A stretch of DNA of 64,000 nucleotides from Escherichia phage UPEC06, in sequence record MW250786; one strand, given 5' to 3'. Under the pieces are notes generated by a model. That model was given only the letters and a program-made list of their open reading frames with translations. It ran no database searches and was not told the DNA's origin. This document shows positions 1-55,925 of the stretch, piece by piece; the stretch's first letter is position 1; each line of letters starts with the position of its first letter. A program made the translations under genes and the position numbers.

Positions 1-150
1 ATACTGATCGTGGTAAGTATCGTCATAACCAAACGAATCATCAACCAGATCATTAAACTGCAACCAACCTAAGTATTCATGCTTACTTGCAAAACCACGC
101 TGGAACCATTTAGTTTGCTCAACCGGAACTGTCAATTTAGCTTTACCCAT
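1..150 (-). CDS. hypothetical protein, partial (N-terminal part only; gene continues beyond window start)
   Basis: Reverse-strand ATG at 150 opens a frame (MGKAKLTVPVEQ...) that runs off the window edge; not in the ORF track because under 60 aa. Confidence 0.3.
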   Translation of the reverse strand, partial: MGKAKLTVPVEQTKWFQRGFASKHEYLGWLQFNDLVDDSFGYDDTYHDQY

Positions 151-164
151 AATATTTCTCCTTA

Positions 165-638
165 TTATTTAATCAGTGCCTCAGAAAACTCAGGAAGATC
201 CATAACGATTGTTTCGGAACGATCTTCTTTTCGTGTGTATTTACGGGTATTCACTTTTTCAACAACCGGAATATCAAAATCCAAAGAATTAACAAAAGCC
301 GTCGCTTTAGAACTACTAACATCTAGGATATCCATCTTTTCGTAGATATCTACAAGTGGGAATTCTGATTTGTCACGTAGACGTCCAGAAAACACTGTTG
401 TTTCACGACAAAGGTACGGCTTATCGATACAACGTACATTCACTCGGTTAATTCGGTCAATCTGGCAAGGTTTGTACTCACCTGTCTCTTCATTCAGGAT
501 GGAGACTTGGAAACCGATCAGGTGAAGAACTTTACGAAGAGTCTTGTCATCCTTCGGGTCGAAGTTCATGATTTTTGCACATTCCAAAATGAAATCCAGA
601 GTTACTGCACCGTATTTAACTTCTTTCTTAAAACCCAT
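165..638 (-). CDS. hypothetical protein
   Basis: ORF track 165..659; the second in-frame ATG (MGFKK) is preceded by GAGGAG at SD spacing, so start placed at 638. Confidence 0.45.
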   Translation of the reverse strand: MGFKKEVKYGAVTLDFILECAKIMNFDPKDDKTLRKVLHLIGFQVSILNEETGEYKPCQIDRINRVNVRCIDKPYLCRETTVFSGRLRDKSEFPLVDIYEKMDILDVSSSKATAFVNSLDFDIPVVEKVNTRKYTRKEDRSETIVMDLPEFSEALIK

Positions 639-660
639 TTTAATCTCCTCGTACAACATT

Positions 661-684
661 TTAAAAAGAGGGGCAATATGCCCC
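661..684 (-). terminator. putative rho-independent terminator (minus strand)
   Basis: GGGGCA-ATA-TGCCCC hairpin followed on the minus strand by a T-run, directly downstream of the 727..1758 gene. Confidence 0.4.
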
Positions 685-726
685 AGCGCCGATAATAATA
701 TAAAATTAACTAACCAATGTCAACAC

Positions 727-1758
727 TTATTTTGCAACATGACCAGGAATTAACTGGCGATGTTGAACAAACCCTTTCAGGTTTCCACTCCAGAAGTTAC
801 CGTCACGATCTACGTGAGTAATACCTTCCTGCCAGGTACTGAATTGAGTTGGGTGGTTAATTGACCACAAGACTTCACCATACTCATTGGTGTGGTGGTA
901 CTCTTGTTCAATCTCCTTCGCCTGATGCTCGAATGGAGAAGCGTGGACCTTTTTACCGGATACAAGTTTGGCATAAATATCCAAAGCTTTATCTTTTGTA
1001 TTGTTAAGACGACGATAACTTACCTGCCCACAACAAGAGGAAGAGATAGACAAAGCCTCTTCTTCAGATAGCATAATGTGATTTCCATCTTCATCCTGTA
1101 CACAATACCCTGCGAAAATATGTCCATCACCCAAAGGTCCAGAATCGAAGCAATGATCTACGTAAGGCGTATGCCACACCCCAGGCTGCAACAATTCTGG
1201 AGTAGAAGCTTTATAAGCTTCGTGCATTTTCTTAGCCAATACTTCGATCGTTGGGTCTGCATCTGCATCAACACGTAACCAGAAGAAGTTTTCAAATTCT
1301 GTTGCTGTAACGATAGTCTTCATCATCTGGAACGGCTCGATCAATCGGTTAGCAATCTGCTTATGGAACCCCGCTGCCTCGAAACGTTCTGCCCACTCGC
1401 AGGCATTTTCCGCAGCCTTGGCCCAAGCTTCTCGTCCGGTACAGTACAGTTCATGACACACGCCACTTGTATCTTCCACCCAATCATACCATACTTTACC
1501 ATCATGTTCTGTTCCTTTATCCTGCATACCAGGTTGGTTAGCACCAAATCGAACAGGCATTGCCATATTTTCACGGATCAGTTTAACCATTGTCTTGATC
1601 GGCACTGCACGAGAAGACATTGCATTTCGGCTAAACAGTCGGTGCGTCATAAGTTCTGAATGAATGAATCGAGGATAGGTCAATTCAAACGTGGTGATAC
1701 GAGCTTTACTACGGTAGCCAACAGAATCTGCAATAATACGGGCTTCAATCATGGACAT
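727..1758 (-). CDS. putative flavin-dependent thymidylate synthase (ThyX-like), divergent
   Basis: THRLFSRNAMSSRA resembles the ThyX RHRx7-8S signature; protein is longer than typical ThyX; next to nucleotide-metabolism genes. Confidence 0.4.
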   Translation of the reverse strand: MSMIEARIIADSVGYRSKARITTFELTYPRFIHSELMTHRLFSRNAMSSRAVPIKTMVKLIRENMAMPVRFGANQPGMQDKGTEHDGKVWYDWVEDTSGVCHELYCTGREAWAKAAENACEWAERFEAAGFHKQIANRLIEPFQMMKTIVTATEFENFFWLRVDADADPTIEVLAKKMHEAYKASTPELLQPGVWHTPYVDHCFDSGPLGDGHIFAGYCVQDEDGNHIMLSEEEALSISSSCCGQVSYRRLNNTKDKALDIYAKLVSGKKVHASPFEHQAKEIEQEYHHTNEYGEVLWSINHPTQFSTWQEGITHVDRDGNFWSGNLKGFVQHRQLIPGHVAK

Positions 1759-1774
1759 TCAAATCTCCTCTCTA

Positions 1775-1981
1775 TTAATTTAAATCTTCAACAAATTGTG
1801 GCAAGTAATCTTCAATTGGGCTAATCAAATCATTTTCTCTTACAATTTCCAAGTTAGCAAGTCTTTTCTTTGCCAAGTAAGAAATAAATTCCTTAGTATC
1901 TACCCTGTGTCCTTCTAGTGCCAACTTACCGTCAATATAAACACCTTCCCAATCTTCACCTTCGAAAAATACTATTTTCAT
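1775..1981 (-). CDS. hypothetical protein
   Basis: ORF in the leftward gene array; start/stop overlap with neighbour. Confidence 0.35.
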   Translation of the reverse strand: MKIVFFEGEDWEGVYIDGKLALEGHRVDTKEFISYLAKKRLANLEIVRENDLISPIEDYLPQFVEDLN

Positions 1982-2163
1982 TTTATTTTCCTGATTTTGT
2001 AATCAACACGAACATCATACATAACGTGAAGATACATGTCAAACATTTCTTTGCACATATCGCTTTTTACTTTGAAGGAAGCCAAAAGGCTTCCATTTTC
2101 TTTAGAAAGGATCTCTACATAATCCCCTTCCCTAACTACCCACCTTCCTTTACCACATCTCAA
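1978..2163 (-). CDS. hypothetical protein
   Basis: Small ORF tightly packed between neighbours. Confidence 0.3.
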   Translation of the reverse strand: MRCGKGRWVVREGDYVEILSKENGSLLASFKVKSDMCKEMFDMYLHVMYDVRVDYKIRKIK

Positions 2164-2765
2164 GATTCTCTCTCCAAAATAAATTCAGCAATCGATGCCC
2201 AATCGCTAGTTACCAAGTCGTAACATCCGATCTCTTCTTCATCTTGACTGAAGGGCGTATCATACTTGATTTTTACTACCTTGTCACTAAATTGATTCAA
2301 AAATTTATTACGATCATCAATGATGTAATCACCCGAAACTCCAGCCTTGTACTTTGTAGCATAAAAACCACACCCGTCTGTTCCATTTTCAAGGTCCAGG
2401 TTAGGGAAGTGTCGCTTCAAGAAACGAACCTTACTGCTAAAATGACCTTTCTTGCAATAAGAAACAAACCGAATAGGGAATCCTGCGGCATGTAACTTGT
2501 TGATTGCATCTACCGCTCCCGCAATAGGGAACATCTTATCATACAAGAAAGGATCTTCCCAATAATCATAAGGAGGGATAGCCTTCTTACAGCGATCAGG
2601 GAAGTACCGAGAAAGATTGTAATCAAAATACCCATTCTCGCTAATGTCCTTGTCCATAAGGTCAGAATCAGCCTCCATATTATAGATGCTTTCCATCCAG
2701 TGCAACCAAGGCCATCCAGAATCAACGATAGTTAAGTCAACATCCACAATGATCGCTTTTTTCAT
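2160..2765 (-). CDS. HAD-superfamily 5'(3')-deoxyribonucleotidase-like phosphatase
   Basis: N-terminal IIVDVDLTIVDS (DxDxT/V HAD motif I) and C-terminal YIIDDR motif. Confidence 0.55.
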   Translation of the reverse strand: MKKAIIVDVDLTIVDSGWPWLHWMESIYNMEADSDLMDKDISENGYFDYNLSRYFPDRCKKAIPPYDYWEDPFLYDKMFPIAGAVDAINKLHAAGFPIRFVSYCKKGHFSSKVRFLKRHFPNLDLENGTDGCGFYATKYKAGVSGDYIIDDRNKFLNQFSDKVVKIKYDTPFSQDEEEIGCYDLVTSDWASIAEFILERES

Positions 2766-3404
2766 TTACTCTTTCCCCTCTGAGAGTTTGATAATTAATT
2801 TTGCAGTTTCAGTTAGCTTACCATTAACGTTTTCAACGTCGAAATCTCTAGGTCGTGCACTTTCAGGAAAATTCTCAGAGTAAATATAATTACGAGAATC
2901 GCCTTCAAAAGTTAATTTATTACCAGTTCGTGGATCGGTACGGTGAAGACGGATCAATGTGTAATCTCCATTTACCGCCTTCACTACCGGAACGCTTTCA
3001 TGAACAAATCCACCATCAGAGCTAATAAACGTACAGGTATAACCATTCATTTCCATACTTTTCGCAATATCTTTGACACGCTTGGCAAGAGCAACACCAA
3101 AGTATTCTTCTCCGAAGAGAGGCTTCGCAACATTCTCAGAGATATGGATCAGCCAGTTACGTGGAGACACTTGTTTACCTGCAACATTGAAATATGGTTG
3201 AGGCACTTCTTTATAATCACGGTGGTAAAGTGCATCCCACAGTTCACGATTAATACCTGCAATACGAATAGCTAGATCGATAAGGGAACCTTTAAACTCA
3301 ACATGAATACCTACGTTATTATCTACCGTAACTAACTCTGCAATCTCTTTAGCAAGAGCATCTTTACCAGAAAAAGCAGGACCATTCAAATTGATAAATT
3401 TCAT
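2766..3404 (-). CDS. deoxynucleoside monophosphate kinase (P-loop)
   Basis: N-terminal MKFINLNGPAFSGKD P-loop resembling the T4 gp1 dNMP kinase N-terminus. Confidence 0.55.
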   Translation of the reverse strand: MKFINLNGPAFSGKDALAKEIAELVTVDNNVGIHVEFKGSLIDLAIRIAGINRELWDALYHRDYKEVPQPYFNVAGKQVSPRNWLIHISENVAKPLFGEEYFGVALAKRVKDIAKSMEMNGYTCTFISSDGGFVHESVPVVKAVNGDYTLIRLHRTDPRTGNKLTFEGDSRNYIYSENFPESARPRDFDVENVNGKLTETAKLIIKLSEGKE

Positions 3405-3425
3405 ATTAATCTCCTCTCAGTTTCA

Positions 3426-3451
3426 CAATAAAAAACCGCCCCGAAGGGCGG
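3426..3451 (-). terminator. rho-independent terminator (minus strand)
   Basis: CCGCCC-CGAA-GGGCGG hairpin followed on the minus strand by TTTTTATT, downstream of 3463..4557. Confidence 0.55.
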
Positions 3452-3462
3452 TTAAATCAAAA

Positions 3463-4557
3463 TTACAGAATGTTTGCCAGCGTTTTCTTCATCGCTGCCT
3501 TCTCGCGAACATTCTGACGATCTCGTGCACAAGAACCACATTCCTGGCAACGATAAACCTTGAACTTAGACAAGAACGTTACTGCTTTTTTACCTTCTTC
3601 AACAACCAGGTCGTCACTACCACAACGAACACAACGCATAGTTGATTGATCTTTGTGGAACAATGCAACGTTTGGATGTTTACGCATGAAAGGTCGTACA
3701 GTCAGGTACAGTTCTTCCAGCGTTGGGATATCACCAATGTTATATTCTTCCATCTCATCAAATGCTGTCGGATCACCTTCAACACAACGTCGCCACAGAC
3801 TGAAACCTTCATGCGACAGCTTACGACTATCAAGTTCAAAATAGTTACATGCTGCTTCAAGTGCATTTGAAGGAAGAGAGAAAGCTTCTTTCAGCGCAGC
3901 CAATGTATCGATCGTAATGTAAGGACTTGGTGGTTGCATACCGTAGTATGCGAAACGCTGGTTTGCCCAACCACGGTCAAAGCGAGCATTATGTGCGATG
4001 AAGATATCACATTCATCCAGAACTTTCCACAGGTCTTCGATCAACTTACGATCTGACTGGTGATCTCGTGCAAACTCTTCTGGATAATCCGTCAGCTTAC
4101 GGCTGAAGATCGACGGGTTGTGCAACCACTTACCAGCAAATGTCAGCATGTACGGTTCCATAATTACCTGCTTCGGTGCAATGAACTGTTTAAATCGTCC
4201 AAACGAATATGCAACAGAAGGAGATGTTTCAACGTCACCAAGGAAAACTTTAGCACCTGGGTTCTGCTCTTTGATCTTTTCAATAAAATCTTTTTCAATC
4301 TTAGCAACAGGTTCACCACTCGACTCTTTCTGCTGCATATATTCTGCATAGTTTTCGTAATCTTCATACGCCGGAGTCATTTCAAGGAGTTCTTTAACAC
4401 TTGAAACATCATTCTTTTCAATTTCACGACGGATCATATTACGAACCGTGGATTCCTGAGACTCTTTACCCAATTGGCGAGCTACTTCGCGCTGAGACAT
4501 ACCGTGTTTCATCAGTTGCAGAACTTGTTCAACAGTAAAAGTTACTTTATTAGTCAC
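3463..4557 (-). CDS. DEDDh (DnaQ-like) 3'-5' exonuclease domain protein with N-terminal HTH and C-terminal zinc ribbon
   Basis: HTH-like segment (SQREVARQLG), DVETS (exo I-like), FIAHNARFD (exo III HxxxxD), C-terminal CVRCG...CQECGSC. Confidence 0.5.
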   Translation of the reverse strand: MTNKVTFTVEQVLQLMKHGMSQREVARQLGKESQESTVRNMIRREIEKNDVSSVKELLEMTPAYEDYENYAEYMQQKESSGEPVAKIEKDFIEKIKEQNPGAKVFLGDVETSPSVAYSFGRFKQFIAPKQVIMEPYMLTFAGKWLHNPSIFSRKLTDYPEEFARDHQSDRKLIEDLWKVLDECDIFIAHNARFDRGWANQRFAYYGMQPPSPYITIDTLAALKEAFSLPSNALEAACNYFELDSRKLSHEGFSLWRRCVEGDPTAFDEMEEYNIGDIPTLEELYLTVRPFMRKHPNVALFHKDQSTMRCVRCGSDDLVVEEGKKAVTFLSKFKVYRCQECGSCARDRQNVREKAAMKKTLANIL

Positions 4558-4567
4558 TAAAAACTCC

Positions 4568-4813
4568 TTATTTAAAAAATTCGATTACATCGGCAACAGC
4601 AAAGTCACGGATATCTTGTTTATCTACATCATACGCTTTCATAAACCACTGTTCGCCACGATGATACGGCGATTCACCATACCACATTACTGGCGTACCA
4701 GTTACAGTACGATAACCACACTCACCTTTCCAATTGCGGTAATAAAACCGCAAGGTTGGTAAACCGTATGTGTTATGGTCAACTTCTTGACTCATACAAA
4801 TAACCCTCCTCAA
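4568..4813 (-). CDS. hypothetical protein
   Basis: ORF track; overlaps the upstream gene end by about 35 nt. Confidence 0.3.
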   Translation of the reverse strand: MRRVICMSQEVDHNTYGLPTLRFYYRNWKGECGYRTVTGTPVMWYGESPYHRGEQWFMKAYDVDKQDIRDFAVADVIEFFK

Positions 4814-5357
4814 GTTTATCGATAAACGCTTTCACATAAAGAGTTATCATCTCTCCTTTATCCAAACCCTCATCGATAACTACATTGTACCTCAATAAAG
4901 CGTTCATTGCAATTGTTTCTTTCTTTAATCTCTTCAAATATTTTTTCAGGTCAGCAACAATCTCACCATGAAACTTTCTTGAAGAGTAATCCCTTTCGAG
5001 ATAGTCAGCCATTCTACGTAGAACTTCACTCATTGTCAAGTCTGTTTTATCTTCCATGTGTTTAGACCAAAGTTTTTGTACACCGCCTTCGAAAAGGTTC
5101 AGGGTGCTTCCAATAACACCCCTAACCTTTCCATCAAAGTGATCATGGTCTAAACAAGGCTTCTCCATAACTTCACCCAGTATAGCACAAACTCCCTGTT
5201 GGTCAAGCAATATTTCATCACGATATTTTGCTATTTCCTTCGACCCACTCACCCAAAGATCCTTATTCAATTTAACACGGATAGGTGTAGTTGCCTTATC
5301 CTTCGCTGTGAATAGTGGCCTCTTTGACCGCCGCTTCCTCACTCTCGGTACTCGCAT
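4779..5357 (-). CDS. endonuclease VII-like (T4 gp49-like) junction-resolving nuclease
   Basis: CAILG...PCLDHDHFDGKVRGVIG matches the endo VII Cys / DHDH / GKVRG core; true start may be internal. Confidence 0.5.
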   Translation of the reverse strand: MRVPRVRKRRSKRPLFTAKDKATTPIRVKLNKDLWVSGSKEIAKYRDEILLDQQGVCAILGEVMEKPCLDHDHFDGKVRGVIGSTLNLFEGGVQKLWSKHMEDKTDLTMSEVLRRMADYLERDYSSRKFHGEIVADLKKYLKRLKKETIAMNALLRYNVVIDEGLDKGEMITLYVKAFIDKLEEGYLYESRS

Positions 5358-5964
5358 GTACTCCCTCCAAGGCCAAAGCCATTAAGAACTCACCGTGTGT
5401 AGGTGCAACAGGGTTTTCAAAATACTCTTCCATTCCGAAGCGATAAAGTGACATTGGAAAGTTTATATTACTAAACAGACTGTTGTCAACATTATTTTTA
5501 AACTCTAATGGAACGTTCGAATCAAAATCCTTAAAGAATTCAGATCGACTTGAGTTTATAAAAACCCTTAAAGCATTATCAAAAATCGGATTACCTTTTT
5601 GCTTCGTCAAATAAAGTAATTCTTTCAGTGAAGCTTTATCAGAAACAGATTTGAAAGAATACCCACTGATGATGATCTCGTCAAAACACATACCTCTGAC
5701 TTTTTGCCAAAAAGACCACTGTGCAGAACTGATCGTCTGAATGTGCATGTTCAGCTTAGATCGTTCATTAAACAGGTTTATATCGTAACCACTACGATCT
5801 TTCTGATAAGAACCAAACCCCAAGCTATTTGCAGTGTGCTTCAGTTTAGCAATGAAATCCCCCCTTTCGAGGGTATTCCAACAGATCACTAATTTCTTAC
5901 TCTGGTAAAACTCTTCAGATTCATAGCGTTCAATAACCGTTTCGTTCAAGGTAGCATCTCCCAA
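5296..5964 (-). CDS. hypothetical protein
   Basis: ORF track; no recognisable motif. Confidence 0.3.
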   Translation of the reverse strand: MGDATLNETVIERYESEEFYQSKKLVICWNTLERGDFIAKLKHTANSLGFGSYQKDRSGYDINLFNERSKLNMHIQTISSAQWSFWQKVRGMCFDEIIISGYSFKSVSDKASLKELLYLTKQKGNPIFDNALRVFINSSRSEFFKDFDSNVPLEFKNNVDNSLFSNINFPMSLYRFGMEEYFENPVAPTHGEFLMALALEGVHASTESEEAAVKEATIHSEG

Positions 5965-6508
5965 TTAAGTAGGCATCTGCAAGATCTGTAGACCCGCCGT
6001 TCTTACCTGTCTTTGAATATCCAGCTAAAAACCCAGGTTCCATCAACTCGCAAACCTTCATCATTTGATCTTTATCCATTTTAATTTTTTCCATCTTCGT
6101 ACCTTTTGCATTCATCACTTCTTGTTCTTCACCAGGTAACTTACCTCGTGCCCAAGATTTAACGGATGTTGGTGCAATTGTGTGTATGTTGTCCATACTA
6201 TACCCATCTCGAAGCAGTGTCAACTGAATACAGAAAAATAATCCTGCAAGATCCCTTGTCGCATTACCAGCAGAGCCGAAACTCAAAGACTCTAATACGA
6301 TCTTCTCAACCTTAAAAGATTCACAAATATCTGCAATGTGTCTAGAGATGTATGCCATCTGCTCGACAGGGTTGTCAAATCGAATCTGCCAGTCCTTGGC
6401 ATTTGCAGATCCGGTGGTTTTTAATACCTCTTTAAAGATCGGTTCATTACCGTCAAAAACTACACATGCACAAGAAGCCATACTCTGATCGATGGATAAA
6501 ATTTTCAC
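5930..6508 (-). CDS. putative RuvC/YqgF-like nuclease (tentative)
   Basis: N-terminal ILSIDQSMASCACVVF resembles the RuvC ILGIDPGS..GYGV first strand with catalytic Asp. Confidence 0.3.
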   Translation of the reverse strand: MKILSIDQSMASCACVVFDGNEPIFKEVLKTTGSANAKDWQIRFDNPVEQMAYISRHIADICESFKVEKIVLESLSFGSAGNATRDLAGLFFCIQLTLLRDGYSMDNIHTIAPTSVKSWARGKLPGEEQEVMNAKGTKMEKIKMDKDQMMKVCELMEPGFLAGYSKTGKNGGSTDLADAYLIGRCYLERNGY

Positions 6509-6816
6509 GCTGATTCCCCTTCTTCGGTATTATCAAGATAATGATACTGGTCGATTAAGAACACATAGTTCTTTACTTCTCCGTCCATGTAAACCATAAA
6601 AGTTACATATTTCTCATCATAGAACGGATCACCAACAACATAGATCTGGCAGATAGAATCAACACGTTTGTCAAACCACTGGATTCGCCAAGGCTCCTCA
6701 AGCATAGTCCAAGGTTCTTCAATCTTGTAGACCTGGCGCTTTGCGCCAGGAACTAGTGCTGCACGAATTTCGTCAGCGATCATAACATCATCAAAACTCT
6801 CAGAAAAACCCGACAT
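6505..6816 (-). CDS. hypothetical protein
   Basis: ORF track; translationally coupled to neighbours. Confidence 0.35.
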   Translation of the reverse strand: MSGFSESFDDVMIADEIRAALVPGAKRQVYKIEEPWTMLEEPWRIQWFDKRVDSICQIYVVGDPFYDEKYVTFMVYMDGEVKNYVFLIDQYHYLDNTEEGESA

Positions 6817-7925
6817 TAAATACCTACCCGTTTTAAAGTTGAGGCTAATGTTGTCTTATCATTTTCTGTACGTTTCATATAAACGCATTGGAAAATAACA
6901 GATGCCCATTGACCAGCAGAAAACTTACGAAGATTACCCAAATGATCCGTATATTCAACACCTTCGGGGAACCAACTCTTATATTGTTCAATAATAGCCA
7001 ACCACATACTCTTCTCGTCTGCACAAGGGGAGATGACCTGGAAAGCCGATGTTTCACCAAAGCGAAGACCCTCGAAGGTTTGATATGGTTTAACGTTATC
7101 CGCTGCATCACCGAATAGCATTTGGTAACCGAAGAATTTCTTACCCCAACCTTTTACCTTACCAGACTCCATCCAGATCTCACCCATAGAATCATCGATC
7201 AACCAAAGTTCAGGATGTTTCCATGTACGCTCTGTTGAGTCACGCATTGTGTTAAACAACAAAGAAGGAACCTGAACCTGATCCTTATCGAATGATGCCA
7301 CAATATGACTAAACTTTCCAGTCTTCCGATAATTTAAATATCCTTTATATCCAAGGATCGATAAATAATCATCTGCCTCAATACCATCCACAATGATCGC
7401 ACCATACTTCTGCTGAACATATCGACGAGTCTCCCCAAGCAACAGAGGACGTAAAGTATCTTCACGGTTACCCTTATAGATCTCAGGGGTCGGGAGTGCA
7501 AGACGGAAGTTACCACCCCCACCTAAAACACCAAGCCCGTTTGCTGATCCTACGTGTTCAAGAATAGCATTGATCTTAATCTTCAATAAGTGAAGACAGT
7601 TCTCCACTGGTTCTGGAGTTTGCTTTTCAATGATCTCGAAATCATCACGTGTCCACGGAGTAAATTCTTTTCCGCGAGCAACCGCTTTTGCTTCCATATT
7701 AATGTTTTGGTCTTTTAACCATCCACCAACAACATTCTTTTGGCGACCCCAAAACTCTGTTTTATTCTTAAACTCTTTCTCTCGGCCTGTTTCTTTGTGT
7801 CGAGCGATGATCGTTCGTTTTTCTGCACCAGCCGCAGCAACATAGCAAGTTTGATCGAGATCAAGTGCAACAACCACGTTGTCTTCGACAATACCTGACC
7901 AATCTTCAATTACCGGATAACCCAT
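6816..7925 (-). CDS. putative 5'-3' exonuclease / flap endonuclease (RNase H-like, FEN family)
   Basis: VVALDLDQTCYVAAAG and GAIIVDGIEADDYLSILG resemble FEN/T4 RNase H motifs (IDxS...; ExADD). Confidence 0.45.
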   Translation of the reverse strand: MGYPVIEDWSGIVEDNVVVALDLDQTCYVAAAGAEKRTIIARHKETGREKEFKNKTEFWGRQKNVVGGWLKDQNINMEAKAVARGKEFTPWTRDDFEIIEKQTPEPVENCLHLLKIKINAILEHVGSANGLGVLGGGGNFRLALPTPEIYKGNREDTLRPLLLGETRRYVQQKYGAIIVDGIEADDYLSILGYKGYLNYRKTGKFSHIVASFDKDQVQVPSLLFNTMRDSTERTWKHPELWLIDDSMGEIWMESGKVKGWGKKFFGYQMLFGDAADNVKPYQTFEGLRFGETSAFQVISPCADEKSMWLAIIEQYKSWFPEGVEYTDHLGNLRKFSAGQWASVIFQCVYMKRTENDKTTLASTLKRVGI

Positions 7926-7938
7926 AGACCTCTCCTTA

Positions 7939-8442
7939 TTAAAATGCTTCGCCGTAATCTTCGTCTTCTTTAACTTCTTTTACTGGTCGCTTAAATTTGA
8001 AATCTTTACCCATGTATTCATACAGGTAATCGATATTCAAAGACCATTCTTGCTTACTTCTTTGTCGCCATAATGCCGCAGCTTGCATAATGTATTCTTC
8101 GGCAGCTTTCTTGTCAACACCGTTAACTTTCATAAAGTGTTTAACTGCACGAGTCATGTTACCAGTCGCTTGAGCACGACCGATATGTTTTACTTCGTGG
8201 CAAGGAGGGCATAAAGCAATCACGCCTCGTAACACAACTTCACCATTAACAAAGTCCCAGATTTCGTGAGCTTCTACAGGATGCTTACGCCCATTCCCAC
8301 CTTTGCCCCCACAAACCTCGCAAGTGTAGTTAGCTTCTTGATAGCACTTTCGACGAACTTTGTCCCAACCAGCTTGGGTAAGGTAAGATCGGAGGTTATT
8401 GTCCCAAGCTGTGCTTGGAATTAATTCGATAGTCAATTTCAT
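7939..8442 (-). CDS. HNH-family endonuclease-like protein
   Basis: CEVCGG...HPVEAHEIWDF...CPPCHEVKH: CxxC / H..H / CxxCH arrangement. Confidence 0.4.
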   Translation of the reverse strand: MKLTIELIPSTAWDNNLRSYLTQAGWDKVRRKCYQEANYTCEVCGGKGGNGRKHPVEAHEIWDFVNGEVVLRGVIALCPPCHEVKHIGRAQATGNMTRAVKHFMKVNGVDKKAAEEYIMQAAALWRQRSKQEWSLNIDYLYEYMGKDFKFKRPVKEVKEDEDYGEAF

Positions 8443-9087
8443 TTAATATGCCTCACATTTACCAATCATATTCATAGCTTCAGAAACATCGATAATCATA
8501 TCCGTTGCTTCGTCCCAAGCTTTCCCCAAAAGATTCTCTCCATACCAGAAACTTTCATCATCTACCATAGGGTGATTCTCATCCATACCGATCCCCCATA
8601 TACGATCTCTCGGGGAGGCTTCTACAAACTTCAAACCCTTTTTACGGTAACCCACCGCCAGTTCACGAAGATTACCATTGTCGCACATACGACTATACAC
8701 TAAACGAGTGACAATATTAAATTTATTTTCATCCCAAACCGCCTGATCAAAATTCTTTACCTTACGACCTAGCGTTTTAGCACCTTGCGGCGTTACGGCC
8801 TTGATGATCCTTTCCGCTGAATCTTTGTCACCGAAAAGCATAGCCTTTTCATACATCATGTAATGCTCACCAGTGTGGAAATAAATCCCCTTCATCTTCT
8901 GGTCGAAGTTTGAAAACGGAGAGATCTCCTGGTAATGATTACTAAAAACATCACGATAAGAATAAAAGAACACATGTTTATCAGTGACTCGCATAAAAAC
9001 TCCTATAGATCCAATGCAGATATTGAAATTAAGAATAGCACTACCGAAAGTAATCCATCCGGCGTACTGAAAAATCCAATCCAGCAC
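8443..9087 (-). CDS. NADAR (YbiA-like) domain protein
   Basis: FSNF...GEHYMMYEKAMLF...EASPRDRIWGIG aligns by eye with E. coli YbiA/NADAR signatures; first ~30 codons hydrophobic, start may be internal. Confidence 0.7.
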   Translation of the reverse strand: MLDWIFQYAGWITFGSAILNFNICIGSIGVFMRVTDKHVFFYSYRDVFSNHYQEISPFSNFDQKMKGIYFHTGEHYMMYEKAMLFGDKDSAERIIKAVTPQGAKTLGRKVKNFDQAVWDENKFNIVTRLVYSRMCDNGNLRELAVGYRKKGLKFVEASPRDRIWGIGMDENHPMVDDESFWYGENLLGKAWDEATDMIIDVSEAMNMIGKCEAY

Positions 9088-9130
9088 GCTCTTGTGAACA
9101 GGTAGAATGCCAGTATTAAAACGATAACCC

Positions 9131-9367
9131 CTAAGAATGTTTCGATTTTTCTAACTCCCGAGCCATGATCTTAGTAATGTCAGCAAACGCCACGTAAGCA
9201 TGTTTGTAACAACCAACGTCAACCTTAAGGGATTTGATCTCTTCTTCCAGTACATTTATTGTATGGAGTGTTTGACGAATAAGATCAACATCCTTAGTTG
9301 TTATATTGGGTGAAGCTGTCATTAACTTAAGCCTTTCTTTAATCGTTTCGATATCTTGATTATACAT
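9131..9367 (-). CDS. hypothetical protein
   Basis: ORF track; predicted coiled-coil character. Confidence 0.35.
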   Translation of the reverse strand: MYNQDIETIKERLKLMTASPNITTKDVDLIRQTLHTINVLEEEIKSLKVDVGCYKHAYVAFADITKIMARELEKSKHS

Positions 9368-9692
9368 TCACAATCTCCAGTAAAGATCCAGGAATTGAAA
9401 CAGAACAGTTTTCTGCCATTGGGAATTTAGCAATCCAATCTGAAAGGCTGCAATAGGCAGACCAATCAAAGTCTTCGTCGAAAACGACAATATTATTAAA
9501 TTCCACACCATCAAGATTAACAATCTTTTTAATAATCAGGTCTTCGATCTGACTTGCCTTAAAAAGACCACAGATTTTGGATGGCAAGTTAAGTCCCCAC
9601 CGTTCACGAAATTCAGAATCTTCAAACTTGAAGAAACCAACTGCCTTTGCCAAGTCTGCTGCACGGACCTCTAAAATAACCGATTTACTCAT
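9360..9692 (-). CDS. hypothetical protein
   Basis: ORF track. Confidence 0.35.
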   Translation of the reverse strand: MSKSVILEVRAADLAKAVGFFKFEDSEFRERWGLNLPSKICGLFKASQIEDLIIKKIVNLDGVEFNNIVVFDEDFDWSAYCSLSDWIAKFPMAENCSVSIPGSLLEIVNV

Positions 9693-9941
9693 TTAATTTC
9701 CTCCTCGATCTGTGTAGTGCTGTATAATCTCATTTAAACATTTGCCTGTCAACGAAAATTTCTTAGCTACATAGCACTCAGCAATGTGTTCTTTCAAATC
9801 TTTAGAGTCTGTGTAGCCCATTTCAACAATGAAGTGACGGATCTTCGTCTTGTCCTTATCATTTAAAGAATTGAAATAATCACTTTTAGAATCAATTATT
9901 CTCATTTTCAAGTTTCCTGATCTGATAGTAAAGAGAGTCAA
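9693..9941 (-). CDS. hypothetical protein
   Basis: ORF track. Confidence 0.35.
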   Translation of the reverse strand: MTLFTIRSGNLKMRIIDSKSDYFNSLNDKDKTKIRHFIVEMGYTDSKDLKEHIAECYVAKKFSLTGKCLNEIIQHYTDRGGN

Positions 9942-10164
9942 TGATCTCTTCGTTGGCCTTAATGTACATATCCCGTAAGAAAGGTTTCAACCCATCACGC
10001 AAAATATTTCCATCACAAGCATCGTTCAGGTATGGATGGCCTAGAGCCTCCCAGGCAGGTTGATTGGTATAAGTGCCCCAGCCTTGATTCATCATCTGGT
10101 TAAGGTGCTCGATTTGTTTTATCTTAAGCTGCAAAGCTTCAATAGTAATCTGTTTAATATCCAT
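9892..10164 (-). CDS. hypothetical protein
   Basis: ORF track; overlaps neighbour, start uncertain. Confidence 0.3.
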   Translation of the reverse strand: MDIKQITIEALQLKIKQIEHLNQMMNQGWGTYTNQPAWEALGHPYLNDACDGNILRDGLKPFLRDMYIKANEEIIDSLYYQIRKLENENN

Positions 10165-10625
10165 CAGTAAAGGTCCTCAGAGTAAAGTTCTTTTTCATTA
10201 CCACCACGTTCAATACGTACTTGTCCAGCGTAAGTTGCAATAATCATTGCTTCTTCACGTGTCCAATAATTGCTATATTGGTCAATAAACCCTTGGTCAT
10301 CATCACAAACTTGTTGAGTAACTAATTGAGGTTTAACTACATCTAAAACTTCTGCCATATCTTTAGAATAATGACGAGCACCTGGAATAATAAGAGTTCG
10401 TCCATCTTTTAATTTAAAACGGTTGGCTGCGCAGACAATTCGTCGTTGATACTTTTGGTTTTCATCCCAATACAGAGTCTGCCAACAGATTTCAGGAACT
10501 TCATCTAAAACATTTTGTTCTGTATATTCACCACCGTAAGAAGCTAATTTAGCAGCCAGACTTTCCGGAGTCTCACGCGACAAAGCTTTATCTAACAGAG
10601 CTAAACGTTCTTTAAAAGTTTTCAA
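10164..10625 (-). CDS. hypothetical protein
   Basis: ORF track. Confidence 0.35.
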
Positions 10626-10629
10626 TTGA

Positions 10630-10818
10630 TCACCCCTTTGTAGTAGAATCTTGCTTGGTCATTTCACGAAGAATAAGTGCTCCAATATTTTCAAGAAGTG
10701 TTACAAGAGAGTCAACCTCAGGTAACTTAATACTCTTGGCTTCTTTACTCATCCCATCACGAACTCCCGAAATTTGCATAAACACGGCAATCATTTCTTT
10801 TGTAAGTTTAATATTCAT
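10630..10818 (-). CDS. hypothetical protein
   Basis: ORF track. Confidence 0.3.
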
Positions 10819-10885
10819 TTTATCTCCTGTTGTTGGTTGATATGGGTATTATACAGAACTGGAGGCAGGTGTCAAGAGATATATA

Positions 10886-10910
10886 AAGAAAACCGCCCCG
10901 AAGGGCGGTT
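10886..10910 (-). terminator. rho-independent terminator (minus strand)
   Basis: Same AAAACCGCCCCGAAGGGCGGTT hairpin as at 3431-3451, followed on the minus strand by TTTTCTTT. Confidence 0.5.
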
Positions 10911-10919
10911 TAAAAATTT

Positions 10920-11162
10920 TTACCAATTTGCGTAACCATCTTGTTCATCGGTATCACGATCTATGATTCGTGGCTTTGGAGTTAGATCCATATGAGCAAG
11001 AGGCGTACCTTCTGGAATATCATTCAGTGAATATTCAACATTTACCAGTTGACCTGTAAGCTCATCCATCTTTTGGGAGATATACGCTGCAACTGATCGA
11101 CCCTCCAGAGTAGCCAGGTATTTCAGTTTTTCGTAAGTTGCGTCGTTAAAATTAATATTCAT
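10920..11162 (-). CDS. putative ribbon-helix-helix (CopG/Arc-like) DNA-binding protein
   Basis: ATYEKLKYLATLEGRSVAAYISQ resembles an RHH strand-helix-helix motif. Confidence 0.35.
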   Translation of the reverse strand: MNINFNDATYEKLKYLATLEGRSVAAYISQKMDELTGQLVNVEYSLNDIPEGTPLAHMDLTPKPRIIDRDTDEQDGYANW

Positions 11163-11224
11163 ATTTGTATCTCCTTTTTGTATTTTTCATTACAAGGACC
11201 ACACTAACGTGGCCCGATCGTTAC

Positions 11225-11446
11225 TTAAGCTACCAGTTCTAAATCTTCAGCTTCTGCGTAGAAACCATCGACGATAACACCGTCCTGACGTGTGAATGCA
11301 ACAATAACATCTCCCCAATCTTCATCGACGAATTCAACAACGCCAATATCTCCAAATCGAACACCAGACAAACTGTAGCGGTCTTCATAATTACCTAACG
11401 GACTGAACTTAACTGTCTGACCTGGATTAACTTCTTTGATATTCAC
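11225..11446 (-). CDS. hypothetical protein
   Basis: ORF track. Confidence 0.35.
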   Translation of the reverse strand: MNIKEVNPGQTVKFSPLGNYEDRYSLSGVRFGDIGVVEFVDEDWGDVIVAFTRQDGVIVDGFYAEAEDLELVA

Positions 11447-11486
11447 AGAATTTCTCCTTATACAACTTTAAGATATTAACTTTATA

Positions 11487-11798
11487 TTATTCTTCATCAA
11501 CTTCACGACCCATCAAGATATCAAGTTCGTTCAGTTGTTCAATCTGGCTTTCAAGCGCTGCACGTTTCTTCTCTGCTGCATCTTGCTTATCGTATTCACC
11601 GTTGATCAGGGTACGTAGGAATTTAGGGTCGATGTTCAGGTCTTCTTTAGTGATCGCCAGGATGCTTTTCAGATCTTCAGCAGCATCTTTCTGACGACGA
11701 ACAGCTTCAACACCTTCCTGAACAATGTTAGCCAGACGCTTACGAACTTCCAGGTCAGAAGGCAGGGTATTGATCAGTTCGATTTTAGATTTAGCCAT
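11487..11798 (-). CDS. hypothetical protein
   Basis: ORF track; charged, helical character. Confidence 0.35.
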   Translation of the reverse strand: MAKSKIELINTLPSDLEVRKRLANIVQEGVEAVRRQKDAAEDLKSILAITKEDLNIDPKFLRTLINGEYDKQDAAEKKRAALESQIEQLNELDILMGREVDEE

Positions 11799-11883
11799 TT
11801 GTATTTCTCCTCTTTAGTGTTTAAATAGTAAGTTAACTTCTTTGCTTCGATGGGGTAAATAATACCCCATTCAATATCTTCTG

Positions 11884-12231
11884 TCAAGCAGGATTTTTAA
11901 GTTCTTTAAAAACAACCTGGAAGACTGGAATTTCATCACTGATCTCTGACACAAGTAGAGCTACAGTTTCACAAGGTAAAGTACATGTTGCAAACGTCTC
12001 ATAGCCTGTATGGATCTTCAAGGTTAAATTACCTTTCAGTCCAATTTGGAACTGACGTACAAAAGAACTTAATGCACTAACATAAATCTCATGATATCCA
12101 TTTGGACGACGAACATATTTTTTACCACTTGCAAGACCCTGGATAACAAGACCATCAAAAGAGATTTTAGTCTGAGCACCATCATACAGTGGCAACGCAG
12201 TTTTTTCAACATCTTTTTCTTGATTCATCAT
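11884..12231 (-). CDS. hypothetical protein
   Basis: ORF track. Confidence 0.35.
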   Translation of the reverse strand: MMNQEKDVEKTALPLYDGAQTKISFDGLVIQGLASGKKYVRRPNGYHEIYVSALSSFVRQFQIGLKGNLTLKIHTGYETFATCTLPCETVALLVSEISDEIPVFQVVFKELKNPA

Positions 12232-12237
12232 TTCTCC

Positions 12238-12414
12238 TTATCGTACAAACATTTTACCCTGGTCACAATAACCGTTTTTAATTCCTCGTGGAGCAGACAA
12301 ACATTTTACTGCAATCTCTCCACACTTGCAAGGAGCATTTTCACGTTCTGCAATCTTTCGGTTCTGATCGAAAACTTCACCACATTTTTCACATTTGTAA
12401 GAATACAACGGCAT
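12238..12414 (-). CDS. small zinc-ribbon protein (FmdB-like)
   Basis: Hand-translated 58-aa ORF missing from the track: MPLYSYKCEKCGEVF...APCKCGE, like the FmdB MPIYEYxCxxCG motif; abuts neighbours. Confidence 0.4.
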   Translation of the reverse strand: MPLYSYKCEKCGEVFDQNRKIAERENAPCKCGEIAVKCLSAPRGIKNGYCDQGKMFVR

Positions 12415-12417
12415 TAA

Positions 12418-13194
12418 TTACATACCCTCCAGGTTTGCTTCAAAATAAGTGATTGGCTTCATGATCTTGCCATTCTTATCTTTAAATACTACACGATCCA
12501 TACCATCACCACCTTTTACGATGCTTCCCTTTACACCTTGATAACGGTTACGGTTACGCAGTTCAATCTGTTCAGCTTCCAAACGCAACATGGCATCAAG
12601 ATCAAAATCAGCTTCTGCAAAAAAGTAATACGTCTTGTAGAAACATTCCGTAAATTCTTTCACGGTTGGGATCTTGGAATCATTTGAATCCAAAACCTCA
12701 TTTAAAGCACGACGAGCATTAAAGTTGGAGTTCTGCATGATTGCAACAACCGCCATAACGATCCCGTTTGTATTGTCACTCTCGATAAATTGATCAAGAG
12801 TTCGATAAAGCGAAGTCAGATTATACGTACCCATATTGTCAGCAGGACAGATGTTTTCAGAACCACCTTTTAGGAAGTTGTAATATGATCCAACTACAAA
12901 CAAGTCGCAAAGTGCATCTATGATTTCCTTACGATTCTTTTTAGTTAAACCAAGATCATAAAGTTCATTGTACTCTTCCATAACAAGAGTTTTTTGGAAT
13001 TTTGAAATATCTTCAGAGAAGTCATGAAAACCACGAGCAACAAAATTCCAATTTTTTACTCGCTCTGCTGCTTCCCGAAAGAAGCTATTGCCCTTAACAT
13101 CAATCATCTCGGAAATAAAGGTTTTCTGATCAGCACTCAATTCATTGTATTTCAATTTAATCTCCTTTCGTTTAACTTGGGGGCCATTATACAT
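12418..13194 (-). CDS. hypothetical protein (weak MazG-like NTP pyrophosphatase resemblance)
   Basis: EEYNELYD...CDLFVVG loosely resembles MazG EExxEL / GDxLF motifs; speculative. Confidence 0.25.
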   Translation of the reverse strand: MYNGPQVKRKEIKLKYNELSADQKTFISEMIDVKGNSFFREAAERVKNWNFVARGFHDFSEDISKFQKTLVMEEYNELYDLGLTKKNRKEIIDALCDLFVVGSYYNFLKGGSENICPADNMGTYNLTSLYRTLDQFIESDNTNGIVMAVVAIMQNSNFNARRALNEVLDSNDSKIPTVKEFTECFYKTYYFFAEADFDLDAMLRLEAEQIELRNRNRYQGVKGSIVKGGDGMDRVVFKDKNGKIMKPITYFEANLEGM

Positions 13195-13209
13195 GACCCC
13201 TTATCATTG

Positions 13210-13671
13210 TCAACAGTCTTTATAAGTTTCTAGTGCAACTTTACGGGCTTCATCCTTTTCAATCTCAAACTTAGATCGTTTGTCCTTTCTTGAAGCCTTG
13301 TTACGTCGCTTAACGATTCGACGACAGGTGTGGTAAAGTCGTGTACCTTCATAATCATTCATCCAGAACAGATCGCCATTCACGAAGAGAGTATCGGAGA
13401 TAATACCACAAGCCTTTTCAATGTAAGTAACCTTACCTGTGACCGTATCGACAATTGTATAGTCAACATACCAAAGACTATCGTTATCCTCGCACGGGTC
13501 TTGTTGGCCTTCAGGAACAAAAACTCCAGAATGTATCTCAAATCGAGGAGATCCTTTACGGATCAGCTTCAAGATTTTACCTGCTGGCTTACGAGTTAGC
13601 AGTACCGGAACACCTAAGACTACTGAAAGGTAAAGTGTAATCCCTACAAACCCAATAATTAAAGCTTCCAC
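13210..13671 (-). CDS. hypothetical membrane-anchored protein
   Basis: N-terminal hydrophobic helix (LIIGFVGITLYLSVVLGVPVLL) then basic region. Confidence 0.35.
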   Translation of the reverse strand: MEALIIGFVGITLYLSVVLGVPVLLTRKPAGKILKLIRKGSPRFEIHSGVFVPEGQQDPCEDNDSLWYVDYTIVDTVTGKVTYIEKACGIISDTLFVNGDLFWMNDYEGTRLYHTCRRIVKRRNKASRKDKRSKFEIEKDEARKVALETYKDC

Positions 13672-13673
13672 TA

Positions 13674-15041
13674 TTAAACCTCCTCTGCAATTTTACGAAG
13701 AAGATCCAGAAGAGAATTCGATGCCTCGATCACTTCTTCTAGACTGTTGGCTACACTCTTATCAAAACGAAGCTCAACAAACTTATAATTTAAACGTGGC
13801 AGAAATAGGGATTTCAGATCTTTATTTTCTGCGTCAGTAATGTCATTAGCTTTGATCGTAATAATCTGACCAATAAAATACTCACTTGGTTTTTTACGAA
13901 GTGCATCAGTAAGTCCAGAGCCAGCACCAACCTCAAGAAGTCCATCACGAGTACGGCAGATCAGAGATCCAATAAGCCCAGGTTTCTTTTTGTGAGGCGT
14001 TGTCGCCACAACTTCAAGATCAACATCGAACTCATTTTTAAGTTTGATCCCTTTCTTAGTTTTGTTATCTCCCCAAGGCATATTCGCTTCTTTAAGAACC
14101 GTACCCTCTTTCTTCTGCAAACGCATTTCGATAAAGTGGTCAATAGCCTCTTTAAGACTGCCAATCTGACGACCACGGATCATCTGGAAATGAGAAGACT
14201 CATCAACATAGTTGACAATATTTTCAACCTGCTTACGACGATCTTTATATTTTTTCTTGGATTTACGTGCGATATACTCGTCCATAGAAACAACATCCCA
14301 AACAACCAAACGTACCAGATTAGGATCAATGTTTTCAGGATCTTGGTTAAGATATCCGTTACCGATCTCTCGTGGTTGAACCCCGTGCGGGTATGACAGG
14401 TCAATAACTAAACCTTCCCCGTGCATAACAAAAGGACCATCAGAATTGGCTTTTTCTTTCAGGTTTTGCTCAAGTGAAGGAATACACCGGAAATTAAGCT
14501 CTTTCCCTGATCGTGAACGATAAATGATCTGCTCAGGCCAAACCATAATGTCTGCATAAAGTCCGTCCATCTTCTCGTCGGAGAAAGCACCCTCGTAGTT
14601 GAAATTACGAAGGAGATCCTCTTTGAAAAGGGTGTAGCTTTGGTAAGGAGGCTCTGTAATCAGATCCTTCCAAACCTTGTTGGTCAGGGTTGTCTGGATA
14701 CCACACTCAAGATCGCGGTTAATGATCTTCAGCAGTGTTTCTGGTTCTTCGCACAGTTGAACAGCATTCGTGAGAACATCACGGGCTTCATGCCCAGTAT
14801 ACATACGACTTGCAACATCGTTGACGATAAGATCAATACTCTCTTGCAGATTACGGCTTCCTTGGTGGAAAGTTGCAGGATCAACCTTAAAACTGCGAAC
14901 AAAAAAGTTTAACTCTTTGCTATATGCTACCCGAAATACTTCACGCAGGCCATCATTGTCCGCATGGCTACGTAAGATCGCTTCTTTTTCTTTTGTTGAT
15001 CCGGTTGCTGCAAGTTGTTCGATAATCTTAGTTACGCTCAT
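13674..15041 (-). CDS. ATP-dependent DNA ligase (T4 gp30-like)
   Basis: N-terminus closely parallels T4 DNA ligase (ILNEIASIGSTKQKQAIL); RDLECG...NKVW block; KMDG adenylation motif; C-terminal AGSGL block. Confidence 0.8.
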   Translation of the reverse strand: MSVTKIIEQLAATGSTKEKEAILRSHADNDGLREVFRVAYSKELNFFVRSFKVDPATFHQGSRNLQESIDLIVNDVASRMYTGHEARDVLTNAVQLCEEPETLLKIINRDLECGIQTTLTNKVWKDLITEPPYQSYTLFKEDLLRNFNYEGAFSDEKMDGLYADIMVWPEQIIYRSRSGKELNFRCIPSLEQNLKEKANSDGPFVMHGEGLVIDLSYPHGVQPREIGNGYLNQDPENIDPNLVRLVVWDVVSMDEYIARKSKKKYKDRRKQVENIVNYVDESSHFQMIRGRQIGSLKEAIDHFIEMRLQKKEGTVLKEANMPWGDNKTKKGIKLKNEFDVDLEVVATTPHKKKPGLIGSLICRTRDGLLEVGAGSGLTDALRKKPSEYFIGQIITIKANDITDAENKDLKSLFLPRLNYKFVELRFDKSVANSLEEVIEASNSLLDLLRKIAEEV

Positions 15042-15050
15042 AGTTTCTCC

Positions 15051-15386
15051 TTAGTTTGCTTTGATTTCTAATGTGTATTTTGCCAGACCAAAACCAATCT
15101 TGTCAAGATCTTCTAGGGATTTTTTAACCTCTTCAAAGACCTCTTTAGTTACATTATTTCCACTAACAATATACCGTATCTCAGGACTCCCATCCCCCAC
15201 AACTTCGAAATCATAGTCCTTAAAAAATACGATCACTCCGGCTGCACCATTCTCGTCACTACCGGATAGCATGATTCCCTCTTCATTAGCAACTTGAAAA
15301 ATTCGATCTTTGAAATCATATACCTTACCAACAACAAACTTAAGAGAGTTAAATTTAGTCTTGTAGCCTTTGAATCGGTATTTCAT
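15051..15386 (-). CDS. hypothetical protein
   Basis: ORF track. Confidence 0.35.
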   Translation of the reverse strand: MKYRFKGYKTKFNSLKFVVGKVYDFKDRIFQVANEEGIMLSGSDENGAAGVIVFFKDYDFEVVGDGSPEIRYIVSGNNVTKEVFEEVKKSLEDLDKIGFGLAKYTLEIKAN

Positions 15387-15604
15387 TTAGTCTCCTTTAG
15401 TTTTCCACAAAGAGCACCTTCAACATAGTCAGGGTTCTCTTTAAAGAACTGATCATTCTTTTTTATGATGACACCAATATTTCGACGGAGAAATGCGAAA
15501 GCTTTGATCCCACGATACCAAGCGTCAAAGCTGGACTTCTTCAGTTCTCCACCTGTATAGACATTGGTGAAATAAAACGGATGAGTCTTCTTACTTATCC
15601 TCAT
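15383..15604 (-). CDS. hypothetical protein
   Basis: ORF track. Confidence 0.3.
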   Translation of the reverse strand: MRISKKTHPFYFTNVYTGGELKKSSFDAWYRGIKAFAFLRRNIGVIIKKNDQFFKENPDYVEGALCGKLKETK

Positions 15605-15613
15605 TGTTCCCCC

Positions 15614-15967: not shown

Positions 15968-15986
15968 TCCGTTACTAAGCCATTTT

Positions 15987-16358: not shown

Positions 16359-16362
16359 AGCG

Positions 16363-29176: not shown

Positions 29177-29192
29177 TCTTAATAACTGATTA

Positions 29193-29220
29193 AAGGTCAC
29201 CTTCGGGTGGCCTTTTTTAT
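29193..29220 (+). terminator. rho-independent terminator after the major capsid gene
   Basis: AGGTCACC-TTCG-GGTGGCCT hairpin followed by TTTTTTAT. Confidence 0.6.
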
Positions 29221-36111: not shown

Positions 36112-36140
36112 AAAGCCACCTTCGGGTGGCTTTCTTTTTA
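36112..36140 (+). terminator. rho-independent terminator closing the collagen-like module
   Basis: AGCCACC-TTCG-GGTGGCT hairpin followed by TTCTTTTTAT. Confidence 0.6.
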
Positions 36141-43663: not shown

Positions 43664-43690
43664 CAGGGGGCTTCGGCCCCCTTTTTTATT
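43664..43690 (+). terminator. rho-independent terminator after the tape measure gene
   Basis: GGGGGC-TTCG-GCCCCC followed by TTTTTTATT. Confidence 0.6.
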
Positions 43691-55896: not shown

Positions 55897-55898
55897 TA

Positions 55899-55925
55899 GA
55901 GGCCCTTCGGGGCCTTTTCTTTTTA
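55899..55925 (+). terminator. rho-independent terminator
   Basis: GAGGCCC-TTCG-GGGCCTT followed by TTCTTTTT. Confidence 0.55.

Follow-up and report, generated by a model that had tools for sequence, protein, structure and literature searches.

Two identical UUCG hairpins in the leftward gene array of Escherichia phage UPEC06 are probably old Rho-independent terminators

In the 64,000-nucleotide (nt) stretch of Escherichia phage UPEC06 that we analysed (sequence record MW250786, hereafter the window), the same 22-nt sequence, AAAACCGCCCCGAAGGGCGGTT, occurs twice on the plus strand, at 3432-3453 and 10889-10910, in a part of the window where all long open reading frames (ORFs) are on the minus strand. 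How did two places in this leftward gene array come to carry one identical sequence, and what is it for? A first-pass annotation, which located the second copy correctly and the first 1-2 nt off (at 3431-3451), had offered either a duplication or a selected RNA element subdividing the array. We find that both copies encode an ordinary, very stable RNA hairpin, and that the pair is real but unsurprising. The two copies are very probably Rho-independent terminators acting on the host RNA polymerase in the leftward array, i.e. two old orthologous terminators kept identical by a small design space and purifying selection.

An exact-match search of the window for the 22-mer, as the first-pass annotation had proposed, returned these two copies only, and no further copy appeared when up to 3 mismatches were allowed. 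The 16-nt core, CCGCCCCGAAGGGCGG, gave the same two matches and no other, again with up to 3 mismatches. The copies form a direct-repeat family (D12, 3432-3456 and 10889-10913) that is 25 nt long and 96% identical. Beyond these 25 nt, we found no similarity and no shared sequence between the flanks of the two copies.

Read on the minus strand, the two copies consist of the following elements.

3434..3453, minus strand: site 1 hairpin, AACCGCCC-UUCG-GGGCGGUU (exact-match search, terminator scan and hairpin scan)
3425..3435, minus strand: site 1 U-tract, UUUUUUAUU, after the GC core (read from the sequence; terminator scan)
10890..10911, minus strand: site 2 hairpin, AAACCGCCC-UUCG-GGGCGGUUU (exact-match search, terminator and hairpin scans)
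10880..10892, minus strand: site 2 U-rich tail, UUUUCUUUAU, after the GC core (read from the sequence; terminator scan)

The stem is perfect at both sites, with 8 base pairs (bp) at site 1 and 9 bp at site 2; in each case 6 of these pairs are G-C, and a C-G pair closes the UUCG tetraloop. As assessed in a 56-nt context, the predicted folds have energies of -15.4 kcal/mol (z = -2.5) and -16.9 kcal/mol (z = -3.5), respectively. Both hairpins lie just downstream of minus-strand ORFs, 9 nt past the stop codon at 3463-3465 for site 1 and 8 nt past the stop codon at 10920-10922 for site 2. Each is followed on that strand by a T-run, as originally reported. After the hairpin comes UUUUAUUG at site 1, where an AA at the foot of the stem pairs with the first two U of the U-tract; at site 2, the hairpin is followed by UCUUUAUAU. 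Both sites thus display every feature of intrinsic terminators, and of the C(UUCG)G class, that can be tested in a sequence, and a consensus scan ranks them among the top terminator-like matches. Because they are two of only three strong minus-strand terminator candidates found by the terminator scan in 1-20000 of the window, it is plausible that the sites subdivide the leftward array.

If the two sites work as this anatomy suggests, polymerase moving past the stop codon would allow the nascent RNA to fold into a stem of 6 G-C pairs, capped by the exceptionally stable C(UUCG)G tetraloop, and the U-run after the stem would weaken the RNA-DNA hybrid and release the transcript. The hairpin would stay at the 3' end of the mRNA, where it may shield the upstream message from 3' exonucleases. 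Such a design would also account for the identity of the two copies, since an A-rich left flank able to pair with the U-run, few G-C pairs and a C-G closing pair would leave few options.

UUCG tetraloop hairpins are used repeatedly in this phage. There are nine in the window, two on the minus strand in the leftward array (sites 1 and 2) and seven on the plus strand in the rightward transfer RNA (tRNA) and structural block. All nine have UUCG, rather than CGAA, on the sense strand, and all nine are in spacers just 3' of a co-oriented ORF. A DNA palindrome would show no such sense-strand bias, which argues for a function at the RNA level. Those on the plus strand include the following.

29192..29215, plus strand: UUCG-loop terminator in the rightward structural block, AAAGGTCACC-UUCG-GGUGGCCUUU then UUUAUU (hairpin scan)
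36112..36133, plus strand: UUCG-loop terminator, AAAGCCACC-UUCG-GGUGGCUUU (hairpin scan)
43665..43682, plus strand: UUCG-loop terminator, AGGGGGC-UUCG-GCCCCCU then UUUUUAUU (hairpin scan)
55898..55917, plus strand: UUCG-loop terminator, AGAGGCCC-UUCG-GGGCCUUU then UCUUUUU (hairpin scan)
51550-51569, plus strand: UUCG hairpin without a U-run

These terminators are candidates from the hairpin scan. A second near-identical family, (A)GGGG(G)C-UUCG-GCCCC(C)(U), is found on the plus strand of the structural block at 33757-33772, 38391-38406 and 43665-43682. Its only member with a strong U-run is the one at 43665, and the hairpins at 33757 and 38391 may be stabilisers or attenuators instead of terminators. 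In Escherichia phage vB_EcoM-LTH01, 24 of 30 terminator-like hairpins are co-oriented with genes and several near-identical families occur, e.g. AAAGGUCACC-UUCG/UUUG-GGUGGCCUUU at 66080 and 106586. CUUCGG hairpins were reportedly first noted by Tuerk et al. in 1988 in intercistronic regions and terminators of T4, and are said to have been linked to mRNA stability and termination. Like the C(UUCG)G terminators and intercistronic hairpins known from E. coli and phage T4, sites 1 and 2 have a GC-rich stem, a UUCG loop with a C-G closing pair and a U-run, lie just past the stop codon and are in the sense-strand orientation. They differ in nothing of kind, only in their Vequintavirinae-type carrier. 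The exceptional stability of C(UUCG)G hairpins is well documented (PMC2811024).

Is the identity of the two copies more than chance? Plain chance is ruled out when whole-sequence shuffles are taken as the reference, since the 22-mer was found in 0 of 100 dinucleotide-preserving shuffles. However, such shuffles make the match look more surprising than it is: in a terminator hairpin the closing pair is fixed as C-G, the flanks are A/U and few G-C pairs make up the rest, which leaves only a small sequence space. We therefore used a terminator-aware null, in which stem columns were permuted among the nine UUCG hairpins of the window. Under this null, the probability that a given pair is identical is 0.015, the probability of at least one identical pair among the nine is 0.19, and that of at least two identical pairs, as observed, is 0.011. 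The other such pair, at 33757 and 43665, has the sequence GGGGGC-UUCG-GCCCCC. The identity is thus mildly non-random even for terminators, but far below what the odds from naive counts would indicate.

Conservation in related phages shows that the two sites are old. The region is 94-96% identical to phage LTH01 (PP430345), and slightly less similar to A5-4, A7_1, A73 and W70, all of which, including LTH01, are unclassified Vequintavirinae. Matches of ∼75-85% are found in the genus Certrevirus (CR3, CR8, CR9, PBES 02, phiTE, CB7, P7_Pc and others), and BLAST alignments to ∼25-30 Certrevirus and related genomes start or stop exactly at the hairpin. The site 1 core, CCGCCC-UUCG-GGGCGG, is present in nine of nine phages (the window, LTH01, A73, P7_Pc, phiTE, CR3, CR9, F1M1E and SSBI34). 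The site 2 core is present in eight of eight, i.e. the same set minus SSBI34, with a UCCG loop in CR9. Variation among these relatives is seen in the spacer that separates the hairpin from the stop codon, and in the outermost pair of the stem, which is A-U, G.U or G-C; the latter variation supports selection on the structure of hairpins of this class. No regulatory features are annotated at these sites in the regions retrieved for LTH01, A73 and other close relatives. The records of phiTE and P7_Pc annotate a "terminator" at both orthologous positions.

JQ015307 (phiTE), 85205-85220 and 94073-94088: annotated Rho-independent terminators
ON712643 (P7_Pc), 123420-123445 and 132565-132589: annotated Rho-independent terminators

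As in the window, these annotated terminators have the identical 16-nt core, and lie after the exonuclease gene in one case and in a small-ORF region before a TTGAC promoter in the other. They differ in that the outermost pair at site 1 is G.U and the U-tract is UUUUCUUUUU. In addition, at least two further cores are found near nrd genes in each examined 21-kb stretch of phiTE and P7_Pc, and the BLAST count in related records is 5-6 matching places per genome. Only two exact cores are present in the complete LTH01 genome (141 kb, assembled from four retrieved pieces). The AACCGCCC/GGGCGGUU stem has a third paralogue downstream of nrdA, outside the window, at 97549-97568 in LTH01 and around position 4604 of the A73 locus. 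The loop of this paralogue is UUCU in LTH01 and UUUG in A73, and a -35 box, UUUUAUUGAC, comes immediately after the hairpin. These paralogues show that a stem can be retained even as its loop changes.

This conservation is not peculiar to the repeated hairpin. We considered, and rejected, a special invariance reflecting sequence-specific recognition, as other orthologous terminators are equally conserved between the window and PBES 02. Among these are the hairpins that follow the major capsid gene and the two tail-fibre genes, and those on either side of the tape-measure gene. Since such control terminators are as conserved as sites 1 and 2, strong conservation appears to be general to terminators in this subfamily. 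In PBES 02, the hairpin corresponding to 29192 has kept its stem and has a CUCG loop, while the one corresponding to 36112 reads AAAGCCGCC-UCCG-GGCGGCUUU, with a compensatory change from A-U to G-C (CCACC/GGUGG in the window, CCGCC/GGCGG in PBES 02). Such a double change favours selection acting on the structure of the RNA.

The same hairpin is found well beyond these phages. The 16-mer core occurs in at least 120 unrelated IMG/VR contigs, with differing stem extensions, and among the matches listed, the 8 nt that follow on the UUCG strand include 4 or more T in 70% of instances, i.e. a terminator context. Moreover, 5409 of 5426 complete E. coli genomes contain, once each, an exact 21-nt match, GCCGCCCUUCGGGGCGGUUUUU. 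The one genome inspected (NZ_CP019005.1) has this match at 3049989-3050009, in a spacer containing GCCGCCCUUCGGGGCGGUUUUUUUU; the stop codon of a class I fumarate hydratase gene is 5 nt before it, and fumC lies downstream. That each genome has one match suggests the same locus in the other E. coli genomes. PGAP labels this class I fumarate hydratase gene beside fumC as fumB; by its position next to fumC, we take it to be the gene known as fumA in K-12. The fumA-fumC terminator resembles site 1 in its identical 21 nt, in lying between two co-directional genes and in its position just past the stop codon. It differs in its host chromosomal locus, its longer U-run (U8) and its outermost pair, which is G.U rather than the A-U of the phage. 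We found no flanking similarity between this locus and the phage that would suggest transfer, and the simplest reading of the shared hairpin is therefore convergence on a very stable design. A literature search found no open paper on fumA-fumC termination, and the TERMITe Term-seq paper makes no statement on tetraloops. Taken together, the stem, UUCG loop and U-run, the annotation of the orthologues in phiTE and P7_Pc and the same hairpin after an E. coli fumarate hydratase gene support the reading of the sites as terminators. Likewise, terminator anatomy, orthologous conservation and use in the host favour the selected RNA element of the first-pass annotation.

Next to each site, the gene context suggests how a terminator would be used. 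The genes flanking site 1 are the following.

3463..4557, minus strand: gene upstream of site 1, DNA polymerase exonuclease subunit, 364 amino acids (aa) (ORF list)
2766..3404, minus strand: gene downstream of site 1, dNMP-kinase-like (deoxynucleoside monophosphate kinase-like), 212 aa (ORF list; phrog_139, E = 7e-34)

The upstream gene matches phrog_403 (E = 3e-113) and Pfam RNase_T, and is annotated as "exonuclease" in LTH01. Downstream, the ribosome-binding site GAGAGGAG of the dNMP-kinase-like gene is at 3418-3411 and its ATG at 3404, 29 nt past the hairpin; then come an NT5C-like nucleotidase gene and, a little further, thymidylate synthase. The promoter scan found no sigma-70-like promoter on the minus strand between 3404 and 5011, the nearest such sites being at 5039-5011 upstream and 2287-2259 downstream. 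As there is no room for a promoter before the ribosome-binding site and ATG, the two genes after site 1 would be transcribed by readthrough, unless an unrecognised phage-specific promoter serves them. Site 1 would thus most likely stop only part of the transcription, as an attenuator where a replication gene gives way to nucleotide-metabolism-type genes, and in this role would set the ratio of expression between the exonuclease block and the nucleotide-metabolism-type block. In SSBI34 and phiTE, the orthologous site 1 hairpin precedes a TTGAC -35 box, and the window has TTGTGA there, apparently a remnant of this box.

Site 2 has a different setting, with a promoter close behind the hairpin.

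10920..11162, minus strand: gene upstream of site 2, 80 aa, no function assigned (ORF list; phrog_12907)
10848..10875, minus strand: perfect-consensus sigma-70-type promoter, TTGACA-16-TATAAT (promoter scan, 12/12 consensus positions)
10630..10818, minus strand: gene downstream of site 2, 62 aa, no function assigned (ORF list; phrog_21981)

The distance from the hairpin to the -35 box is 14 nt, and the U-tail doubles as an AT-rich stretch upstream of the promoter. Past the promoter come a ribosome-binding site and the 62-aa ORF, which this consensus match is predicted to serve. Site 2 would then close one early transcription unit just before the promoter opens the next, forming a terminator-promoter junction. 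Certrevirus phages do not have an RNA polymerase of their own, and have conserved sigma-70-like promoters and Rho-independent terminators (PMC7344957, PMC9769974), a published picture of transcription that such a junction fits. The ∼96-nt block of hairpin and promoter aligns at ∼80% in Certrevirus phages. In A73, W70, A5-4 and A7_1, the orthologue of the 62-aa ORF is separated from the site 2 promoter by a ∼300-bp insertion (at 10819-10847 of the window; 18544-18910 of the A73 locus). This insertion contains an extra 73-aa ORF, named A73_182 in A73. Both boundaries of the insertion share a short repeat resembling a ribosome-binding site, AGAGGATA, which suggests gain or loss by short-homology recombination.

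Several points weigh against reading both sites as terminators. The promoter and terminator scans report consensus matches only, and the 21 terminator-like matches in 1-20000 of the window compare with 14.1 +/- 3.7 in shuffles. At site 2, a C interrupts the U-run, and only a weak U-tract would be left if the stem formed its three basal A-U pairs. At site 1, the two following genes without a predicted promoter imply a terminator that is not fully efficient, unless a phage-specific promoter has gone unrecognised. Finally, a literature search returned no transcript 3'-end data for this phage or its relatives and no Vequintavirinae transcriptome paper, and termination itself is what we infer from the features described above. 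The hairpins could instead be mainly intercistronic stabilisers, processing barriers, or sites recognised by RNase III or another protein in polycistronic transcripts. The missing promoter between site 1 and the next gene, which means that transcripts must continue through, would fit such a role, as would the three of nine UUCG hairpins in the window (33757, 38391 and 51550) that have no good U-run and indicate non-canonical use in this phage. However, the U-runs directly after both stems would be needless in a pure stabiliser, and a consensus promoter after site 2 is what is expected if upstream transcription stops. We consider this explanation unlikely; being compatible with termination, it complements the terminator reading more than it rivals it. 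A similarly low probability attaches to the view that the core is kept for its sequence and not for stability alone, either through an RNA-binding or antitermination factor, of the phage or of the host, that tunes readthrough where modules meet, or through homogenisation by short homology. The core does recur at two to at least four sites per genome across several Vequintavirinae genera, and it also matches the host fumA terminator. Homogenisation by short-homology recombination, if true, would amount to a PeSL-like linker outside T4-like phages (see below).

The duplication put forward initially, or a small mobile repeat (of repetitive extragenic palindromic (REP)- or miniature inverted-repeat transposable element (MITE)-like type) within the genome, is more doubtful still. 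The identity is exact over 22 nt, with a probability of 0.015 per pair even under the terminator-aware null, but the two copies have nothing in common past 25 nt, so there was no segmental duplication. Because both sites are present in Certrevirus phages whose flanks are only ∼75-85% identical, any duplication must predate these genera. Moreover, no more than two exact cores occur in the 141 kb of LTH01, the closest complete relative, and the presence of the core in unrelated viruses and E. coli shows that independent origin is easy. As a recent event, duplication is largely refuted. Least probable of all, to the point that we give it hardly any weight, is that the hairpin is the conserved part of a mobile cassette of the PeSL (promoter-early stem-loop) type, a terminator-promoter recombination linker that shuffles small genes. 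PeSLs are composite promoter/stem-loop cassettes of T4-like phages (PMC2839356, PMC4122927). As in these cassettes, the site 2 spacer joins a terminator-like hairpin, a near-perfect sigma-70 promoter, a ribosome-binding site and small early genes. The ∼80% conservation of the ∼96-nt block of hairpin and perfect promoter in Certrevirus phages would fit, and so would the TTGAC -35 boxes that also follow the copies at LTH01 97549, A73 4604, SSBI34 site 1 and phiTE site 1, and the insertion that places an extra ORF immediately behind the site 2 promoter in A73, W70, A5-4 and A7_1. In contrast, the repeat within the genome is 22-25 nt compared with ∼100 bp for a PeSL, and the carrier is not T4-like. 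The site 2 hairpin is upstream of the -35 box, whereas the stem-loop of RB49/phi1 PeSLs is between the -35 and -10 boxes or over the -10 box (PMC2839356). Site 1 has no promoter in the window, and the extra A73 ORF is not flanked by two hairpin copies. Because of the repeat length and the position of the hairpin, we reject PeSL membership of the two sites, and we found no evidence of recombination. The terminator reading accounts best for both.

Elsewhere in the leftward array, several near-consensus sigma-70 promoters have a G4/C4 stem-loop over or just past the -10 box, as listed here.

13165-13215, minus strand: promoter stem-loop GGGGUC-AUGUAUAAU-GGCCCC, at 13213
11838-11888, minus strand: promoter stem-loop GGGGUA-UUAUU-UACCCC, at 11887
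655-725, minus strand: hairpin GGGGCA-UAU-UGCCCC and a U-run after the -10 box, at 723

In LTH01, the hairpin loop at 135966-135989 and 139152-139175 is TATAAT itself. These promoter stem-loops of a Vequintavirinae-type phage have the same architecture as the RB49/phi1 PeSL cassettes (PMC2839356).

At 57175-57198, where the rightward structural block meets leftward genes, the hairpin AAAGGCGCUC-AAAU-GAGCGCCUUU can be read on both strands and is bordered by a T-run on either side; it resembles a terminator acting in both directions where two gene blocks converge. As assessed with Rfam, only tRNAs reach the gathering threshold in the window, and no family matches either site. The sole match at E <= 1 in 3000-11500, PhotoRC-I, was dismissed as a chance match (18 bits, compared with a gathering score of 45). 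By their Rfam matches, five tRNA genes are located at 20220-22057 on the plus strand, at the start of the rightward block; the tRNA annotation of LTH01 in the corresponding region is Met, Tyr, Pro, Gly and Gln.

The hairpin pair does not make any open question testable, and its main value is one of annotation: the two hairpins, together with the promoter at 10875-10848, help to define the transcription units of the leftward array. For the nucleotide-metabolism-type genes past site 1, the arrangement suggests expression by readthrough at an attenuating terminator. That the first-pass annotation found an exact reuse is well explained by strong selection, within a small design space, on two old terminators, a well supported conclusion that involves no recent duplication and no novel element. 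More generally, the exact reuse of a short GC-rich hairpin need not imply duplication, as unrelated viruses and the core genome of the host also possess this 16-mer, whether it arose there or was retained.

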